Shown: positions 1 to 12,412 of the stretch, one piece after another | Numbering within the stretch: position 1 is the first letter of the stretch | How the letters are laid out: the number at the start of each line of letters is the position of its first letter | From: an uncultured archaeon | GTDB lineage: Archaea > Asgardarchaeota > Thorarchaeia > Thorarchaeales > Thorarchaeaceae | DNA length: 31,003 nt | Direction: 5' to 3' | NCBI GenBank assembly: GCA_964648855.1 | Contig: CAZYLT010000023.1 | Coordinates: 1-31,003, forward strand | Translations under genes and position numbers: made by a program | The notes under the pieces: model-generated | What the model saw: only the letters and a program-made list of their open reading frames with translations | Databases searched by the model: none | Told to the model about the DNA's origin: nothing

Positions 1-213
1 GGATCATGTGATGTGGCCAATTCGCCTCTGAATCATTGTATTATTTTACAGAGCCTCCTAATTGAGAAAGCTATTAAGCACCTATGCATCGTCACACGAA
101 CCATGAAACCACAGTGGGCATCAACTTCTCAGGCACCGCTTCTTACTGATGGGCTTTCCAGACCCATTGACAAGGCAGAAGGAAAATGTCCCATGACGGA
201 GAGCTGGAAATGA
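1..213 (+). pseudogene. mvhD: Degraded 3' remnant of an mvhD (hydrogenase delta subunit) paralogue
   Basis: Codons 55-210 align without gaps to the C-terminus of the intact MvhD at 11963-12412: 17/52 identities by hand (LIEKAI..R....QWASTSQA....DG...P....WK vs LMEKAI..R....QWASASEA....DG...P....WK). Both end in ctggaaATGA. The GCHPGDCHY motif is not retained. It sits in the usual mvhD position, upstream of mvhG. Confidence 0.7.
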
Positions 214-333
214 ATTGTTTCTCAATTTTATTTGATGACGTTCGTAAGAATAATCTAGACCAACATGGATTGGCAAGGGCTCATGACACCATGGAAATAA
301 TGATGTTTCATTCCGATTTGAGGAGGCTAACTC

Positions 334-1254
334 ATGAGTGACCCAGTACCTGTGGCAATGGCACAGGGAAGTTCGTGCTGGGGTTGTTTCCAGAGTCTGG
401 TTGACATCCATCTCAATTTAGCAGATGTCCTGCCCCTACTGGATATTAAATTCTGGGCAGGAGTCGTGGATTACAAACTTCAAGACTTGGAGAATTATTC
501 CGATAAATCGATCAAAATTGGATTATATGAGGGAATGGCAAGAACAGAAGAAGATGTTCATTTGCTGAAGGTTATGCGCGACAAGTGTGAGACCTTGATT
601 GCCTTTGGAACATGTTCATGTTTTGGAGGTATTCCTGGGCTGGCCAACTTCTATGATATAGATGATGCATTAGAGGTGAAGTTCAGAAACAATAAGACGG
701 TTTCTGGAGGTAAAGTGCCCACAGAGAATCTACCTGCAATTGAAGCAACAGTGAGACCTAACAAAGACATTGTGGATTTTGACATCTACTTGCCTGGCTG
801 TCCACCCACCTCAAAACTCATTCTTACTGCGTTGAATGCTTTGCTTAATGGAGAGGACATAGAATTGCCTCCCCATACTGTTTGTCACTACTGCGACCGC
901 GAGAAAGAAGAAACCCCTATTCCAGAGGTCCTGCGTCCATTTGAAGGGAAAGCTGACCCAGATAGGTGCCTTCTCGAGCAAGGATATATTTGCCTCGGGT
1001 CTGCAACATGGGGCCTCTGTGAGGGACAGTGTGTGAACAAAGGTTCAACATGTCGAGGCTGTTTTGGTCCGCCTCCACCAATCATGTCTGACCAAGGCGC
1101 TGCGTCAATGTCAATGCTTGGAACGTACGCCCCCATCGACCCTGAAAAATTGCTTGAAAAAGTGAAGGACCCACTTGGTACTTTCTATAGATTCACGTAT
1201 GCAACTAGTCATCTTGGTAGAATCAGGCAAAAACGCGAGGAGGCGAAGAGATAA
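334..1254 (+). CDS. mvhG: F420-non-reducing (group 3c) hydrogenase small subunit MvhG/VhuG
   Basis: SSCWGC, AFGTCSCFGGI, LPGCPP, CHYC, RCLLEQGYICLG and CRGCFGP Fe-S motifs; gaggagg RBS upstream; stop overlaps the start of the large subunit. Confidence 0.95.
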   Translation: MSDPVPVAMAQGSSCWGCFQSLVDIHLNLADVLPLLDIKFWAGVVDYKLQDLENYSDKSIKIGLYEGMARTEEDVHLLKVMRDKCETLIAFGTCSCFGGIPGLANFYDIDDALEVKFRNNKTVSGGKVPTENLPAIEATVRPNKDIVDFDIYLPGCPPTSKLILTALNALLNGEDIELPPHTVCHYCDREKEETPIPEVLRPFEGKADPDRCLLEQGYICLGSATWGLCEGQCVNKGSTCRGCFGPPPPIMSDQGAASMSMLGTYAPIDPEKLLEKVKDPLGTFYRFTYATSHLGRIRQKREEAKR

Positions 1255-2570
1255 TGGCAGAAGAAAAGACGATTAGAATCGATCCCGTAACAAGACTTGA
1301 GGGACATGGTGCATTAACAATCAAAATGGGCAAAGATGGAAAAGTCAAAGACGTTCAATTCAATGTAGGAAGCACGAGATTTTTCGAGAAGTTTCTTGAG
1401 GGTAGACCAATGGAGGAAGCCATTAGGATTGCTCCAAGAATCTGTGGCATCTGTCCGGTCCCTCACCATTTAGCCTCGACAAAGGCGGTGGAAGCAGCTT
1501 GGGATGTTACACCTCCAGAACCAGCAATCAAACTGCGCCGGCTGATGATGGAGGCAAAGCAGCTTTCCTCCCACGCAATTCATTTCTACGCTCTTGCCGC
1601 ACCGGATTTTGTTTTTGGACCTTTTGCCGATCCTGCGGTTAGAAATGTGGCGGCGGTACTCAAGCATCTTCCTGATGTGGCTGTTCAGGCGATTGAATTG
1701 ATGGAGTTTGGTCAGGAGATGTGCAGGACGGTGGGTGCAAAGGCTATACATCCAACAACTGCAATTCCGGGTGGAATGTTATCCCCTCTTAGCGAAGAAG
1801 AACGTGACAAATGGCTAGGAGAAGTGCCTAATCTTCTGGAAAACATAAACAAGACCGTCGACCTTGCCAAAAAGGTAGTCACTGACTATGTAGATGTTGT
1901 GACAAAGGTTGCTGTTACTCCAACCTACTATCTTGGATTGACCAATGATGGAGTCCTGGATATCTACGAAGGCAATGTTCGAGTAATGGACCCCGACGGG
2001 AAGATAGTAGCTGATTTTGAACCAAGTGAGTACACAACATACTATGGTGAACATATTCCTAACCATTCTTACGCTACTCATACATACTTCAAACCTGCTG
2101 GGTATCCCGATGGAATCTGGCGTGCCAATACCCTGGCACGATGCAACGTAGTTGACAAGATGGCTACTCCACTGGCTCAAGAAGCCCTTGAAGAGATGCG
2201 TGAACTGATTGGACGGCCATCACACCACACTTTCGCCTTTCATTACGCTCGAGTTGTCGAAATGGTTCAGGCTGCGGAATGGATTAAGACATTGCTTGAA
2301 GATCCAGATATTGTCAGTACTGATATCAAGTTATCAGACGTCGAGCCAAAGGCAGGTGATGGCGTTGGCATAGTTGAGGCACCACGAGGAACTCTTCTGC
2401 ACAATTACGAATGCGACGAAGATGGGATAGTTTTGAAAGCAAATCTCATCGTGGCAACCAACAACAATATTGCGGGGATTGAGAAATCATTGATGGTGGC
2501 CGCAAAGCAGATCTTTGAAGACAAAGCCCATGAGGAACTCGAATTACCTGACCCACTCGTTAAAACATAA
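1254..2570 (+). CDS. vhuA: Group 3c hydrogenase large subunit, split (VhuA) type, lacking the C-terminal L2 motif
   Basis: IDPVTRLEGH N-terminus, L1 motif RICGICPVPH, VEAPRGTLLH and ANLIVAT. Ends at TAA 2568-2570 without DPCxxCxxH. Confidence 0.93.
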   Translation: MAEEKTIRIDPVTRLEGHGALTIKMGKDGKVKDVQFNVGSTRFFEKFLEGRPMEEAIRIAPRICGICPVPHHLASTKAVEAAWDVTPPEPAIKLRRLMMEAKQLSSHAIHFYALAAPDFVFGPFADPAVRNVAAVLKHLPDVAVQAIELMEFGQEMCRTVGAKAIHPTTAIPGGMLSPLSEEERDKWLGEVPNLLENINKTVDLAKKVVTDYVDVVTKVAVTPTYYLGLTNDGVLDIYEGNVRVMDPDGKIVADFEPSEYTTYYGEHIPNHSYATHTYFKPAGYPDGIWRANTLARCNVVDKMATPLAQEALEEMRELIGRPSHHTFAFHYARVVEMVQAAEWIKTLLEDPDIVSTDIKLSDVEPKAGDGVGIVEAPRGTLLHNYECDEDGIVLKANLIVATNNNIAGIEKSLMVAAKQIFEDKAHEELELPDPLVKT

Positions 2571-2579
2571 ACAACGGAG

Positions 2580-2741
2580 TTGAAACAAATAACAGACGAT
2601 ATACCCGAAGGACTGCTCAATCTCTTGGAGATGGTGGTCCGCTGCTACGACTGCTGACTATCCTGCGGCGCTCATCTTACCATCGTGGACGATGAGGGTC
2701 GCGAGATAGCACGGAAGGAGATTGTAACCAGCGGTGGATGA
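2580..2741 (+). CDS. vhuU: VhuU selenoprotein: small hydrogenase subunit carrying the L2 Ni-ligand motif; Sec at TGA 2655-2657 (absent from the ORF track)
   Basis: Hand translation: LKQITDDIPEGLLNLLEMVVRCYDC-U-LSCGAH-LTIVDDEGREIARKEIVTSGG-stop. This matches the EGLLNxxEMxxRAYDPCLSCATH end of MvhA, with TGA at the Ni-ligating Cys and conservation continuing past it. Start uncertain (TTG 2580 or ATA 2589 behind GGAG 2576-2579). Confidence 0.92.
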
Positions 2742-2797
2742 AGGTTCGGCGTAAAGTTGTGAGCCGGGCCGGACAGACCCTGCAAGGGTCAAGCTGG
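2728..2797 (+). promoter_or_regulatory. Eukaryote-like SECIS element 1
   Basis: AUGA (2738-2741, overlapping the vhuU stop), then A. An 8-bp helix GGUUCGGC 2743-2750 / GCCGGGCC 2763-2770 closes the loop GUAAAGUUGUGA, which contains AAA. G-GA-C follows at 2771-2774. Possible basal pairing CCAGC 2728-2732 / GCUGG 2793-2797, with an inserted hairpin GACCCU-GCA-AGGGUC at 2776-2790. Confidence 0.72.
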
Positions 2798-2812
2798 ATC
2801 TTCTCTGTAAGG

Positions 2813-2869
2813 TTATTCCTCTAATGAGTTAAGGATTAGGACCCAAATCTCGTTCTGAAAGAGGAATGA
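2813..2869 (+). promoter_or_regulatory. Second, degenerate SECIS-like / kink-turn hairpin
   Basis: 10-bp basal helix UUAUUCCUCU 2813-2822 / AGAGGAAUGA 2860-2869 enclosing AUGA 2824-2827 and UGA 2856-2858. The upper helix is only partly paired (GGAUU/AAUCU). Confidence 0.5.
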
Positions 2870-3094
2870 TTCATGACAGTCAAGGCTTATGCATTAAAAA
2901 TCTATATCTGCAATACCCGCCAATATCGCCACCAACAAGAGCAGCCCATTGATTTACCGTCCAGTGTCTGATAACATGTCAAAAATGATTATTTGTGTGG
3001 TACATAATGTGGCTTTTCAGCGCAAGTGTGACATGTAAACACAAGCACAGGTGTCGATACATAAGGTAATAAGCAAACTTTGCTCGGAATTTGA

Positions 3095-3207
3095 TGCAGG
3101 TACCAATATCGTATGCGCACATACTCCAGATGAGACAGTTACTGGATTTCCCAATACACTTCTTTCAGAGATTTACGCTACTTTTCAAGACCTGCAAACC
3201 GCATACG
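3095..3207 (+). ncRNA. Candidate structured cis-regulatory 5' leader (pseudoknot) of the ssb gene
   Basis: Two perfect, crossing long-range helices: UGCAGGU 3095-3101 / ACCUGCA 3190-3196 and CGUAUGCG 3110-3117 / CGCAUACG 3200-3207. There is also an internal hairpin UCCAG 3125-3129 / CUGGA 3142-3146. The element ends 13 nt before the ATG. Confidence 0.45.
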
Positions 3208-3220
3208 CGAGAGAAATAAT

Positions 3221-3700
3221 ATGAGTTATGACAGAGAGCCCATTGAGGCTACAGTGGCCAAGCTAAGGCCCGGAATGAAGAATGTATCTATTGCCTTTAG
3301 AGTCTTGGAAAAGGGCGAAGAGCGAGAAGTAACTACTCGAGGAAGTGGCGAAAGCCATCGGGTTATGGATGCTGTTGTGGGAGATTCCACAGGTATCGTA
3401 AATGTTCCTTTGTGGGACGATTCAATTGATAATCTTGAAATTGACCAGACCTACAATTTGAAGAATGGCTATACCAAATTATTTCGAGGAAATCTTCAAC
3501 TCAACATCGGCAGATATGGAGAAATTTCAGAAGCTGACACTCCTATAGAGGAGGTTAACGAAGAGGTAGACATGTCTGAAGAAACACACGAGGATGACCG
3601 GCATCGTGGACGTCGAAGTGGTGGTAACTATGGCGGAAGCCGTGGTGGCAGATCTGGAGGCAATAGAGGCCGTCGCGACAACCGTGAGAGAAGTTACTAG
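3221..3700 (+). CDS. ssb: Single OB-fold ssDNA-binding protein (crenarchaeal SSB / RPA-like) with Gly/Arg-rich tail
   Basis: VAKLRPGMKNVSI, VGDSTGIVNVPLWD and NGYTKLFRGNLQLNIGRYG are typical of archaeal SSB OB folds; RGG-rich C-terminus. Confidence 0.88.
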   Translation: MSYDREPIEATVAKLRPGMKNVSIAFRVLEKGEEREVTTRGSGESHRVMDAVVGDSTGIVNVPLWDDSIDNLEIDQTYNLKNGYTKLFRGNLQLNIGRYGEISEADTPIEEVNEEVDMSEETHEDDRHRGRRSGGNYGGSRGGRSGGNRGRRDNRERSY

Positions 3701-7505: not shown

Positions 7506-8006
7506 ATGTTGGAAGGCAAACTCCACCATCCGTCATCTGACTTCGCTAAGGAGCTTGAAAAGGTTCCTGGCGGCGAAGCTATAAAGAAATGTGTTCAATG
7601 CGGAATTTGTACAGCAACCTGCATGGTTGCCCGCGAATCAGACAAGTATCGACCGCGTCAACTCATACAGAAGATACTCCTTGGCGAACGTGAGGAGGTT
7701 CTGAAGAGTCTTCAACCGTGGCTATGTATGTCTTGTATGATGTGCGAGGAGAGATGCCAAGAAGGGGTCAGTCCTGCCGATATATTCCATGCAGTTCGAC
7801 GCATAGCTGCAAGAGAAGGACATATACCTCCCGCCTACAGGCAAACTGTTGATACAGTTCTTGAGGACGGCTGGCTTCTAGAGGATTCTTACTCAGATTT
7901 TATTGAAGATGATCGGGATGACTTGGGTCTCGAAACAGAGTTGAATTGGAACAAGAAATTCGTAGAACATGTTAAGAAGAAATACTTCCCCGAGGTAGAA
8001 GAATAA
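7506..8006 (+). CDS. hdrC: Heterodisulfide reductase subunit C
   Basis: CVQCGICTATC and WLCMSCMMCEERC; translationally coupled to hdrB. Confidence 0.92.
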   Translation: MLEGKLHHPSSDFAKELEKVPGGEAIKKCVQCGICTATCMVARESDKYRPRQLIQKILLGEREEVLKSLQPWLCMSCMMCEERCQEGVSPADIFHAVRRIAAREGHIPPAYRQTVDTVLEDGWLLEDSYSDFIEDDRDDLGLETELNWNKKFVEHVKKKYFPEVEE

Positions 8007-8144
8007 TGGATGAAATTTTGCTCTATCGTGGGTGTACGACGCCAGTTCGACTTCCTAATTATGAAGCCGCTACTATCGCAGTTTTGAAGAAACTCGGTGT
8101 CAACGTGCGCCCAATGAAGGACGCTAACTGTTGTGGTGCGCAGT
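7771..8144 (+). repeat. Copy 1 of a 374-bp dispersed direct repeat spanning the hdrC-hdrB junction
   Basis: Gapless hand alignment with 28321-28694: about 44 mismatches (~88% identity). Confidence 0.92.
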
Positions 8145-8878
8145 ACGTAGAATCTTTGTCAAGAAATGCTTTTGCGGCTATGAGTGGAAGAATATTGGCT
8201 CTTGCTGAAAAGGATGGACTGGATATCTTGGCTATCTGTGGAGCCTGCTCCGGCTCATTAAAAGTAAACAAACACTATCTTGACACTAACGACGAAGCCA
8301 AGGACGAACTGAATGAGCTCTTGGCTGAAGAAGGTCTTGAATACTCAGGTACTAGCAGAGTACGACATTTGCTACAGGTTTTCAATGAGGATATTGGATT
8401 TGAGAAGATAGAGAAAGCAATCACTCGACCATACAAAGGGTTGAAGCTTGCTGCACACTATGGATGTCACGTGACTCGACCTGGTGATATTGTTCAAGTA
8501 GATGATCCCGAGAATCCCACAATCATTGATGACCTCATCGCCTTGGTTGGGGCAACTCCCATTGATTACACTGGAAAAACACGATGTTGTGGAGGTCCAA
8601 TGTTGGCGATGGATGATGGCATCGCAACAGCTATTGGACAGGACAAAATTGCGAATATCAAGAAAGCAGGCGCCCAAGGTGTTGTGACTGCCTGTGTCTT
8701 CTGTAACATTCAACTTACACAGGCACAGTTTTCTGGTGAAATAGATCGAAGTCAGCTCTTGCCTACTATTACAGTACCGCAACTGCTTGGGCCCGCTTTG
8801 GGAATTGATGATGATTCGCTTGGGCTTATGCTCAATCGAATAAGTCCTGATGCGATTATGAATACACTTGGAGGTTAG
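8006..8878 (+). CDS. hdrB: Heterodisulfide reductase subunit B
   Basis: Two intact CCG domains: GC...CCG...CGAC and HYGCH...CCGG...CVFC. Confidence 0.93.
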   Translation: MDEILLYRGCTTPVRLPNYEAATIAVLKKLGVNVRPMKDANCCGAQYVESLSRNAFAAMSGRILALAEKDGLDILAICGACSGSLKVNKHYLDTNDEAKDELNELLAEEGLEYSGTSRVRHLLQVFNEDIGFEKIEKAITRPYKGLKLAAHYGCHVTRPGDIVQVDDPENPTIIDDLIALVGATPIDYTGKTRCCGGPMLAMDDGIATAIGQDKIANIKKAGAQGVVTACVFCNIQLTQAQFSGEIDRSQLLPTITVPQLLGPALGIDDDSLGLMLNRISPDAIMNTLGG

Positions 8879-8881
8879 AAA

Positions 8882-10213
8882 GTGACAACCACAAAATCAT
8901 CGACAAAGGGCAAGGATAAATCACAATCTAGAGATGCTCTGATTATTGGCGGTGGAGTTGCTGGCATGCAGGCTGCCCTCGATATTGCTAATCAAGGATT
9001 CCACGTATATTTGGTTGAGAAATCCCCCTCGATTGGAGGACGCATGGCTCAAATCGATAAGACCTTTCCCACCTTGGACTGTTCAGCATGCATTCTGACA
9101 CCCAAACTGAGCGAAGTTGGACGTCATCCAGATATTGAGCTCTTGACATATTCTGAGGTCAAAGACGTCAAGGGCGAGGAAGGTAATTTCACCGTGGAAG
9201 TGCTGAGGAAAGCACGAATGGTAGAAGAAGAATTATGTTCAGGATGTGGTCAGTGTATTGAAGTCTGTCCAATTGAGGTTTCGAATGAGTTTGACCAGAG
9301 CCTCGGATTTAGAAAGGCAATCTATATGCCGTTCCCACAGGCTACTCCCAACACTGTGACTATTGATATGGAAACCTGTATCCAATGTAGCAGATGTGTG
9401 ACTGCCTGTGATAGGGAGGCAATAAACCACAGTCAGAAAGACAAGATTATTGAGTTGAATGTTGGAGCAATCATTATTGCAACCGGCTACAAGCTCTTTG
9501 ATGTTGCAGAATACTCTCGCTTTGGTTACAGCAAGTTCCCTAACGTTATTCATGCAATGGAATATGAACGTTTGATAAATGCTGCCGGTCCTACTGCAGG
9601 CCATCTGGTGAGATTGAGTGACGGAAAGATTCCCAAGAGCATTGCTTTCATTCAATGTGTAGGTGCTCGTGATGTCAACAAGGGCGTTCCACTCTGTTCG
9701 CGAATTTGTTGTATGTATGGGATCAAGAATGCTGTAATGGCGAAGGAGCACGAACCTGACATAGATGTGACTATGTACTACCTCGACATCCGTGCCTTTG
9801 GTAAAGACTTCGAACAGTTCTATGAACGGGCAAAGTCGCGATTTGGTGTGAATTTTGTGCGTGGCAGAGTCGGAGAAGTGGTCCAAGATCCTGACACCAA
9901 TAACTTGATTGTTACTGTGGAAAACACAGAAACCGGTGAAGTGCTACAAGTTGAATATGACTTAGTTGTTCTCAGTCCTGGCATTCAACCACCGTCAGAA
10001 CTAACAGAGCTTTTAGAAAAGATAGGATTAGATGTTGATGAAAACGGCTATGTCGAGGCCCGGGACATACTCTCAACTCCCGTTGATACTACCATATCCG
10101 GAGTGTATGTCTGTGGGTGTGCAGAGGGGCCAAAGGACATTCCCGATTCTGTATCCGAGGGAAGCGCGGCAGCAATGCGTGCGACCATTTCATTAAATGA
10201 TGGAGGTAACTGA
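8882..10213 (+). CDS. hdrA: HdrA-family flavoprotein, short paralogue (FAD domain + inserted 2x[4Fe-4S] ferredoxin; no N-terminal domain, no C-terminal ferredoxin)
   Basis: IIGGGVAG, DKTFPTLDCSACILTP, CSGCGQCIEVCP, CIQCSRCVTAC, MEYERL, IQCVGAR, CSRICCMYGIK and GPKDIPDSV. Confidence 0.93.
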   Translation: MTTTKSSTKGKDKSQSRDALIIGGGVAGMQAALDIANQGFHVYLVEKSPSIGGRMAQIDKTFPTLDCSACILTPKLSEVGRHPDIELLTYSEVKDVKGEEGNFTVEVLRKARMVEEELCSGCGQCIEVCPIEVSNEFDQSLGFRKAIYMPFPQATPNTVTIDMETCIQCSRCVTACDREAINHSQKDKIIELNVGAIIIATGYKLFDVAEYSRFGYSKFPNVIHAMEYERLINAAGPTAGHLVRLSDGKIPKSIAFIQCVGARDVNKGVPLCSRICCMYGIKNAVMAKEHEPDIDVTMYYLDIRAFGKDFEQFYERAKSRFGVNFVRGRVGEVVQDPDTNNLIVTVENTETGEVLQVEYDLVVLSPGIQPPSELTELLEKIGLDVDENGYVEARDILSTPVDTTISGVYVCGCAEGPKDIPDSVSEGSAAAMRATISLNDGGN

Positions 10214-10214
10214 G

Positions 10215-11966
10215 ATGTCTGACGAAATAGAACCAAGAATTGGCGTCTTTGTATGTCATTGTGGTCACAATATCGCAGGGACAGTGGATGTAGAATCAGT
10301 GGCAAAGATGGCAAAGGACCTGCCTTATGTTGTCTATTCAACCGATGATATGTTCATGTGTGCAGACAGTGGTCAACAACTGATAAAGGACAAAGTAGCA
10401 GAACATAACCTGAATCGGGTTGTTGTTGCAAGCTGTTCGCCAAGGATGCATGAACCAACTTTTAGACGAGTCGTAGAAGAAGCGGGTCTCAACAGATATC
10501 TCTTTGAGCAGGTCAACCTGCGAGAGCACGTATCATGGTGCCATATGCGAGAACCAGAGGCTGCCACAGAGAAAGCGAAGGATCTTGTTCGCATGTCGGT
10601 TGCTCGAGCCGCTAAACTTGAATCATTACCCATCAAGAGCGTTTCTGTAACTCCTAGAGCCTTGGTAATCGGCGGAGGTGTGACTGGAATGCACACTGCC
10701 CTTGACATCGCAGATAGAGGCTTTGATGCTGTTCTTGTGGAACGTGAGGCTGACTTGGGCGGACATGTGAAGAAATGGCACAGTCTTTACCCGACAGGTA
10801 GACACGGAGTCGAGATTGTAGATGAGCTCTCAGAAAGAATTCTCAAACACAAGCGCATCAAAGCATACACCAATAGTGAAGTTGTAGGGTTTGATGGTTA
10901 TATCGGGAATTTCGAGGCAACAATCAAGAATAATGAAACGAATAAGGAAGAGAAGCTGGATGTCGGAACAGCTGTCGTTGCAACTGGTTTCAAACCATTC
11001 AAGCCCCAGGGATACTATGGATATGGCTGGACCCCAGACATCGTTACCTTGGCAGAGCTAGAAGAGATGAAGGGTGAAGGTGAGCTCAAGAGACCTAGCG
11101 ATGGACGACCAGTAAAGAAAATTGCGATGATTGGGTGTGTCGGTTCCCGAGAACCTGACAAGAAGGGACACGAACACTGCTCACGATATTGCTGTACTGC
11201 AGTGGCAAATACGGCATCTCAGCTGAGGGATGAATTGGACGAGGTAGTGATCCTCTACCAAGACATACGAACCTATGGAAAGAACCATGAAGCGATTCAT
11301 AGGCAGGCTCGGGCAAAGCACGTCATATATAGTAAGTTTCCAACTGATGAGAAACCCGTTGTACATTACAAGGATGGGCAGATTACCATCACATGGACTG
11401 ATGTACTCTCAGGTGGTAAGTTGGAGTTCTTCCCGGACATGGTTGTGCTTGCATCTGCAATGCTACCCGCCGAGGGTACTGAAGAGGTTGCCAAGCTGTT
11501 TAGCCTAACACGAAGTCCCGACGGGTTCTTCAATCCAGAGCATATTAAACTGGCTCCGCTGACCACACACACCGCTGGTGTGATGATTGCTGGAACTGCC
11601 CAAGCTCCCAAAGGTGCATCTGAGTCTATTGTTGACGCAAGCGGTGCGGCAGCAAAGGCTGTTGGTCTGATGGCTCGAGGTGAGGTAGAAATCGAATCTA
11701 CAGTGTCTTATGTCATTGAGGACCTCTGTTCCTCATGCCACACGTGTGTTTCAGCTTGTCCATACGGTGCAATTAGTATTGATGAAACAAAAGAACCCGG
11801 AGTGGCAAAGGTAACCGAGGCAAAATGCCACGGTTGTGGTACTTGCGCTGCAGCATGTCCAAGCAGTGCAATAGTCATGCGACACTCTACTGACGAACAG
11901 ATTTTGACCATGGTTGAGGCATATCTTTGTCCTGAACAGCTCGTAGAGGGAGGTGCCAAGCAATGA
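10215..11966 (+). CDS. hdrA: HdrA-family flavoprotein, second paralogue (N-terminal Fe-S domain + FAD domain + C-terminal ferredoxin; no inserted ferredoxin)
   Basis: IGVFVCHCGHNIAG, ASCSPRMHE, VIGGGVTG, CVGSR, CSRYCC, CSSCHTCVSACP and CHGCGTCAAACP. ATG 10215 follows ggaggt. Confidence 0.93.
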   Translation: MSDEIEPRIGVFVCHCGHNIAGTVDVESVAKMAKDLPYVVYSTDDMFMCADSGQQLIKDKVAEHNLNRVVVASCSPRMHEPTFRRVVEEAGLNRYLFEQVNLREHVSWCHMREPEAATEKAKDLVRMSVARAAKLESLPIKSVSVTPRALVIGGGVTGMHTALDIADRGFDAVLVEREADLGGHVKKWHSLYPTGRHGVEIVDELSERILKHKRIKAYTNSEVVGFDGYIGNFEATIKNNETNKEEKLDVGTAVVATGFKPFKPQGYYGYGWTPDIVTLAELEEMKGEGELKRPSDGRPVKKIAMIGCVGSREPDKKGHEHCSRYCCTAVANTASQLRDELDEVVILYQDIRTYGKNHEAIHRQARAKHVIYSKFPTDEKPVVHYKDGQITITWTDVLSGGKLEFFPDMVVLASAMLPAEGTEEVAKLFSLTRSPDGFFNPEHIKLAPLTTHTAGVMIAGTAQAPKGASESIVDASGAAAKAVGLMARGEVEIESTVSYVIEDLCSSCHTCVSACPYGAISIDETKEPGVAKVTEAKCHGCGTCAAACPSSAIVMRHSTDEQILTMVEAYLCPEQLVEGGAKQ

Positions 11967-12412
11967 CACAAACCAAGACAAATTCATCTCAGTCTGATTC
12001 TGACGAGTGGGAACCACAGATAGTGGCGTTTTGTTGCAACTGGTGCAGCTATGCTGGGGCCGACCTTGCCGGCACATCACGCATTCAATATGCCCCAAAT
12101 GCACGCATCATTCGAGTGAATTGTACAGGGCGTATCACGCCTGAATTCATTCTATCTGCTCTGGAGATGGGTGCAGATGGTGTGTTAGTGTCGGGTTGTC
12201 ACCCAGGAGACTGTCATTATACAAACGGAAACCTAAAGGCTCGTGCCCGATGGGCTCTGATGGAAAAGGCCATTGAGCAATCGGGGTTGGATCCACGAAG
12301 AGTCAGGCTGCAATGGGCATCAGCCTCTGAGGCGCAAATATTTGCAGATGGAGTCAATAAACTAACAGAACAAGTGAGAGATCTTGGACCAATCAGGAGA
12401 AACTGGAAATGA
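11963..12412 (+). CDS. mvhD: Methyl-viologen-reducing hydrogenase delta subunit ([2Fe-2S]), Cys-only form
   Basis: FCCNWCSYAGADLAG, RVNCTGR, GCHPGDCHY and WASASE; ATGA overlap with hdrA. Confidence 0.95.
   Translation: MTQTKTNSSQSDSDEWEPQIVAFCCNWCSYAGADLAGTSRIQYAPNARIIRVNCTGRITPEFILSALEMGADGVLVSGCHPGDCHYTNGNLKARARWALMEKAIEQSGLDPRRVRLQWASASEAQIFADGVNKLTEQVRDLGPIRRNWK

Follow-up and report, generated by a model that had tools for sequence, protein, structure and literature searches.

The 31,003-nt stretch of Thorarchaeota DNA analyzed here (the window) carries vhuG, vhuA and vhuU in succession on the + strand. The first of these genes, vhuG (334–1254), encodes a 306-residue hydrogenase small (FeS) subunit, which matches the Pfam family Oxidored_q6 (1.3e-19), and vhuA (1254–2570) encodes a [NiFe(Se)] hydrogenase large subunit of 438 residues with a match to Pfam NiFeSe_Hases. 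The third, vhuU (2580–2741), is a short selenoprotein gene, recognized by its translation, its homologous loci, an alignment to a PDB chain and its best NCBIfam match. The NCBIfam families closest to the three products are VhuG NF045875 (233.6 bits, cut-off 450 bits), VhuA NF041785 (503 bits, cut-off 800 bits) and VhuU NF041786 (49.1 bits, E 3.6e-13, cut-off 70 bits), respectively. All three scores lie below the equivalog cut-offs, which indicates that the proteins are homologues outside the narrow methanococcal equivalogs and not members of them.

VhuA possesses the N-terminal RICGICPVPH motif, with the L1 ligands Cys64 and Cys67. The protein ends at a TAA codon (2568–2570), and an L2 motif of the DPCxxCxxH type is absent from the whole 438-residue translation. 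The top PDB matches of VhuA are 9sfi_g, 5odc_F and 9sw2_F, the best of them being 9sfi_g (E 8.7e-132), a split VhuA of 418 residues. The nearest named relatives of the protein come from Candidatus Thorarchaeota MAGs; the closest, from TEKIR_14, belongs to the same genus and shows 94% identity.

The vhuU gene lies in the same reading frame as vhuA, a relation that the first-pass annotation had left unmentioned, and the spacer between them consists of the TAA codon plus 9 nt. When the in-frame TGA at 2655–2657 (+ strand) is read as selenocysteine (U), direct translation of 2580–2741 yields LKQITDDIPEGLLNLLEMVVRCYDC-U-LSCGAH followed by a 21-residue tail, which reproduces exactly the peptide that the first-pass annotation had quoted for a hidden frame with an in-frame TGA. 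The full product reads LKQITDDIPEGLLNLLEMVVRCYDCULSCGAHLTIVDDEGREIARKEIVTSGG and is followed by a stop. An L2 motif of the form D-x-U-x-x-C-x-x-H is present in it as DCULSCGAH (DCU-LS-C-GA-H), and the UGA occupies the first Cys position, that is the first ligand position, of this motif. The codon for His32 is at 2673–2675, the 21-residue tail is encoded at 2676–2738 and the stop codon TGA is at 2739–2741, all on the + strand.

Alignment of VhuU with the 27-residue chain 9sfi_M sets RCYDCULSCGAHL against RAYDPXYSCAAHM, where X, the selenocysteine, falls on the UGA of the window. The same position aligns with a Cys in the fused MvhA and FrhA enzymes, and a Cys is also found there in one homologue from a related genome (G013, contig C63), making up a classical Sec/Cys pair; the expectation that the TGA would align with Sec or Cys in homologues is therefore borne out. 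The fused 473-residue MvhA (5odc_F) is tiled by VhuA, which covers residues 4–411, and VhuU, which covers residues 422–451. As the two alignments lie side by side on this single chain, the two products amount to one normal large subunit, in agreement with the initial description of a large subunit that stops without its L2 motif and is completed by the next frame. The proposed Methanococcales-type split into VhuA and VhuU is likewise upheld, with VhuA best matched by the split 9sfi_g and VhuU aligning to 9sfi_M. Judged from its sequence, the region 2580–2741 is a real selenocysteine-coding gene, vhuU, which would supply the nickel-binding end absent from the large subunit.

It is plausible that standard annotation overlooks this gene, since the calling of open reading frames halts at the TGA and the peptide reaches 49.1 bits where the NCBIfam VhuU model demands 70. 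In practice, ORF callers cut vhuU to 25 codons, and curated models may fail to rescue it.

The vhuU peptide was used in a six-frame search of 41 related genomes, with E ≤ 2e-10 defining a strong match. A frame containing exactly one in-frame TGA is found at this threshold in 23 of the 41, far above chance, and the matches reach three other Asgard families besides the Thorarchaeia family. The source genome itself contains a second vhuU copy on contig C6 (98391–98543), which has an ATG start and closes a paralogous operon with the order vhuD-vhuG-vhuA-vhuU. All 27 TGA loci that were excised (L013–L032, L079–L081 and L083–L086) have the TGA at the identical codon, within ...R-C-Y/F-D-C-U-L-S/G-C-(G/A)-A-H; a TGC or TGT at the codon corresponding to 2655–2657 of relatives had been considered at the outset, and TGA is kept in these 27 loci. 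The frame of vhuU relative to vhuA varies among genera, indicating that vhuU is an independent gene.

Nei-Gojobori counts, with the window copy as the reference and with compared pairs that are not independent of one another, put the summed pN/pS at 0.10 in the 18 codons that precede the UGA and at 0.31 in the 27 that follow. In the comparison with the same-genus orthologue, pN of vhuU is 0.00 while pS is 0.42 and 0.29. Purifying selection thus extends past the TGA, which indicates that the part 3′ of it is translated.

Two of the homologous loci deviate in other respects. In a more distant Asgard genome (locus L079, G032:C49:18799–18930), a TAA leaves a tail of 6 residues after the His, which suggests that the length of the VhuU tail is not essential. 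The Cys-form homologue mentioned above (locus L082, G013:C63:34312–34452) is also split and reads DCCLSCSAF, with Phe in place of the conserved His, although its end retains the ...ATGA; this copy may be Vhc-like or degenerating.

The end of vhuU overlaps with a eukaryote-like SECIS element (loki-type, type I; 2738–2774, + strand), which was delineated by RNAalifold, by covariation and with R1, a covariance model derived from the SECIS elements of vhuU loci. It comprises the AUGA at 2738–2741, which contains the stop codon, an A at 2742, a stem formed by 2743–2750 and 2763–2770, an apical loop beginning with GUAAA (2751–2755), a G at 2771 and the GA at 2772–2773. This layout, AUGA-A-[8 to 9 bp]-GUAAAGUUGUG(A)-[stem]-G-GA, agrees with that of a type I lokiSECIS, in which an AUGA ... 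GA core encloses an upper stem of 7–15 bp and an apical loop containing A, placed at the 3′ end of the gene or over it. In 20 of 20 aligned loci the ATGA stands at the gene end, the hairpin comes next and GAC follows. The structure of 10 pairs has 85% of its cells paired and shows changes on both sides in 8 of the 10 pairs; its covariation score is reached by none of 500 shuffles, and every slid register collapses.

The model R1 scores 46.2 bits at the SECIS of the window and 45.7 bits at that of the paralogue, and 16 bits is not exceeded anywhere else in the genome. Since only the two vhuU copies are recovered, R1 is too family-specific for a census of other selenoprotein genes. It shows no second SECIS in the whole window. 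An Rfam scan of positions 1–3300 with E up to 10 gave no SECIS family and only a chance sRNA match. A lower stem, pairing GGYGG before the AUGA with CCYYGC past the SECIS, was dismissed: it shows no covariation, and the downstream bases form a hairpin of their own.

This short conserved hairpin, ACCCUGCAAGGGU, is located 3′ of the SECIS at 2777–2789 (+ strand) and was identified by alignment and covariation. It is found in 20 of 20 aligned loci, often with a GCAA-type loop, and its closing pair covaries, being AU in 11, GC in 5 and CG in 2 of them. The hairpin may be a 3′-end or terminator element or a part of the basal SECIS. Past the hairpin, conservation is absent even among members of the genus, and neither TEKIR_14 nor the paralogue has a sequence corresponding to the region 2813–2869.

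The source genome, a Thorarchaeota MAG that is 94.6% complete, contains PSTK (C6:54406–55014), tRNA-Sec (C6:55148–55234; 54.7 bits, above the Rfam cut-off, with the anticodon tca according to ARAGORN), SepSecS (C6:55975–57102) and EFSec (C6:57776–58639; TIGR00475, 281 bits, above the cut-off), which form one cluster at 54.4 to 58.6 kb of contig C6. The selD gene, which has an in-frame TGA of its own, is found on contig C12, so that the search for the Sec machinery proposed in the first-pass annotation recovered tRNA-Sec, PSTK, SepSecS, EFSec and selD alike. A HycI-type maturation protease is encoded at C4:30285–30617. The Pfam profiles euk_SelB_III (PF21208) and Beta-barrel_SelB (PF25461) gave no match, and as they are silent on archaeal controls too, these blanks are uninformative. 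Among the 41 relatives, which as kin are not independent, 22 have both a TGA-containing vhuU and a strong SepSecS match, 1 has vhuU only, 2 have SepSecS only and 16 have neither.

The recoding of the UGA as selenocysteine, as originally suggested, is supported by sequence evidence of several kinds, namely the conserved TGA, its alignment with the Sec of the solved VhuU, the covarying SECIS and the complete machinery. This Thorarchaeota genome would accordingly be one that decodes UGA as Sec, and its Hdr-linked [NiFeSe] hydrogenase would be complete and not defective, which bears on the correct annotation and on the metabolic reconstruction of Asgard hydrogen metabolism.

Candidates for the redox partners of the hydrogenase are encoded 5 kb downstream on the same (+) strand, where a hdrCBA-mvhD block (7506–12412) shows matches to Pfam Fer4, CCG, Pyr_redox_2 and FlpD. 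It contains hdrC (7506–8006) and hdrB (8006–8878), both assigned by Pfam matches, two hdrA-like genes (8882–10213 and 10197–11966; Pfam, NCBIfam HdrA2) and mvhD/vhuD (11963–12412; Pfam FlpD, NCBIfam VhuD). The products of these genes are likely to be the redox partners of the hydrogenase. The hdrA-like genes encode 443 and 589 residues, overlap by 17 nt in different frames and match separate parts of the HdrA2 profile. An in-frame TGA is not seen in hdrC, hdrB, the hdrA-like pair or mvhD (7506–12412), and R1 finds no SECIS after mvhD.

These features fit an Hdr-linked, group 3c-like (Mvh/Vhu) hydrogenase, an assignment based on the best PDB and NCBIfam matches together with the hdr/mvhD neighborhood. 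The earlier claim of a [NiFeSe] group 3c enzyme holds in this form, as group 3c-like, with VhuG, VhuA and VhuU as the best families and hdrABC-mvhD nearby.

The arrangement of the genes, the conservation of vhuU and the selection on it, the covariation in its SECIS and the machinery encoded in the genome are all observed, and together with this assignment they lead to a reading in which vhuU very probably encodes, as a gene of its own, the C-terminal part of a large subunit whose enzyme is an Hdr-linked, group 3c-like [NiFeSe] hydrogenase of a Thorarchaeota archaeon. It is hypothesized that vhuG, vhuA and vhuU are co-transcribed as an operon. By analogy with methanococcal Vhu, from which the insertion of Sec, the ligation of nickel and the cleavage of the tail are drawn, the UGA at 2655–2657 would be decoded by Sec-tRNA(Sec), brought by EFSec under the direction of the SECIS located 80 nt downstream. 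The AUGA core holds the UGA stop of vhuU itself, which would be too near the SECIS for recoding. VhuU would then dock on VhuA, where Sec26 and Cys29 would join Cys64 and Cys67 of VhuA as nickel ligands, and the HycI-type endopeptidase is predicted to cleave the tail after His32, following metal insertion.

The start codon of vhuU is less certain than its end. The copy at 2580–2741 has no ATG start, and the candidates are TTG 2580 and ATA 2589. The ATA (2589–2591) is orthologous to the ATG start in 18 relatives and in the genome's own paralogue, and TEKIR_14 vhuU also has ATA at the ancestral ATG position. It lies 9 nt past a GGAG Shine-Dalgarno-like element, a spacing identical to that between this element and the ATG in other genera, while TTG 2580 abuts the GGAG with zero spacing. 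The start thus remains uncertain, with ATA replacing the ancestral ATG and TTG touching the Shine-Dalgarno-like element, and initiation in this copy may be inefficient or unusual.

The ATA found here and in TEKIR_14 might also mean that this vhuU copy is weakly expressed or decaying after the loss of its ATG, and that the vhuDGAU paralogue on C6, which retains the ATG and has vhuD directly upstream in its operon, provides the working enzyme. Such a decay is improbable, however, as the absence of nonsynonymous change relative to the same-genus orthologue points to strong constraint that persists on the peptide, the SECIS is intact with a score equal to that of the paralogue, and both vhuG and vhuA are intact.

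The shared frame and the distance of 9 nt, seen both here and in TEKIR_14, together with the missing ATG of vhuU, could alternatively be explained if the TAA at 2568–2570 were read through and VhuA and VhuU were made as a single polypeptide. This is hardly credible, since in other genera vhuU occupies a different frame or follows several stops, and is equipped with a Shine-Dalgarno-like element and an ATG of its own; moreover, there is no known machinery for TAA read-through here, and the solved homologue consists of two chains. Lastly, MAGs commonly contain single in-frame stops that are artefacts, but the view that the hydrogenase is broken, with a TGA that arose through an error in sequencing or through a recent nonsense mutation, appears effectively refuted by conservation, as the TGA is shared by 27 independently assembled loci, including the genome's own second copy and the same-genus TEKIR_14, and is accompanied by purifying selection past it, a covarying SECIS and the Sec machinery.

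As the separate C-terminal piece of a large subunit, vhuU has close counterparts in other Asgard archaea. VhuU is one of five selenoprotein families reported for Lokiarchaeota (Mariotti et al. 2016, Mol Biol Evol 33:2441, PMC4989117), where it has about 50 residues and a single Sec and is placed after vhuA. The lokiSECIS described there has an AUGA, a 9-bp stem, an A-rich loop of 11 nt and a GA/AA, and for VhuU.1 it is stated explicitly that the AUGA doubles as the UGA stop (PMC4989117). A single-Sec gene of about 50 residues after vhuA, with the SECIS over its stop, is what is seen here too, and so are the AUGA...GA core, a stem near 9 bp and an A-rich loop of about 11 nt. The differences are that the host is a member of Thorarchaeota, that the loop has GUAAA here and AAAAA in Lokiarchaeota, that the 3′ core of the SECIS is GA here and AA as reported for Lokiarchaeota VhuU, and that one unpaired nucleotide is present here between the AUGA and the stem.

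In a 2024 survey of the Asgard selenoproteome (ISME J, PMC11227280), the Sec trait was found in 77.4% of Thorarchaeia and the FrhA/MvhA/VhuU family in 68.3% of the Sec-using Asgard archaea, and most of the Thorarchaeia frhA genes have an apical loop that starts with G[U/G]AAA. The vhuU of the window comes from the same class of organism, has the same family, SECIS type (type I) and loop start, and shows no substantive difference from the Thorarchaeia members of that survey. VhuU has also been reported in Atabeyarchaeia and Freyarchaeia (PMC11291895). The novelty that the first-pass annotation had implied does not stand, because the literature already contains VhuU and its SECIS, both in Lokiarchaeota (PMC4989117) and, through the survey, in Thorarchaeia (PMC11227280); a split large subunit of this family, with a eukaryote-like SECIS lying over the stop codon, is published knowledge, and the present gene brings no new biology.

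The structurally characterized counterpart is VhuADGU of Methanococcus (9sfi/9t1s), PDB entry 9sfi being the Hdr-Vhu-Fwd assembly of M. maripaludis (Nature 2026, PMC13518236). There, too, a VhuA of 418 residues is split from a small Sec peptide, with the Sec at the same aligned position, and HdrABC and VhuD are found in association with the enzyme. The mature VhuU chain of Methanococcus has 27 residues and ends one residue past the His. Its motif contains DPU and RAY where DCU and RCY are found here, its SECIS is of the methanococcal type while that of the window is eukaryote-like, and the present host is a non-methanogen. MvhA of Methanothermococcus thermolithotrophicus (5odc_F) belongs to the same enzyme family, but it is a single chain of 473 residues with Cys (DPCLSC) in place of Sec. 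The literature compared here makes no mention of the DCU motif, the ATA start or the hairpin after the SECIS.

The replacement of DPU by DCU is shared by the Asgard loci examined: R-C-Y-D-C-U is found in 27 of 27 vhuU loci, with Cys substituting for the conserved Pro of DPC/DPU. R-A-Y-D-P-U/C is kept in methanogen VhuU and in the fused enzymes, among them the two other [NiFe] hydrogenases of the same genome. The DCU (in the region 2643–2657 of the window) creates a vicinal Cys-Sec pair, and thioredoxin reductase has a selenenylsulfide between Cys and Sec at its GCUG terminus. By this analogy it may be speculated, with little confidence, that the pair in Asgard VhuU could form a selenenylsulfide, serving for selenol protection, or alter the geometry of the site. 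Such a bond might shield the selenol until nickel is inserted, or during oxidative stress; alternatively, the loss of the conserved proline to Cys might by itself change the active-site geometry. Should the DCU prove functional, it would mark a form of the [NiFeSe] site that is particular to Asgard archaea.
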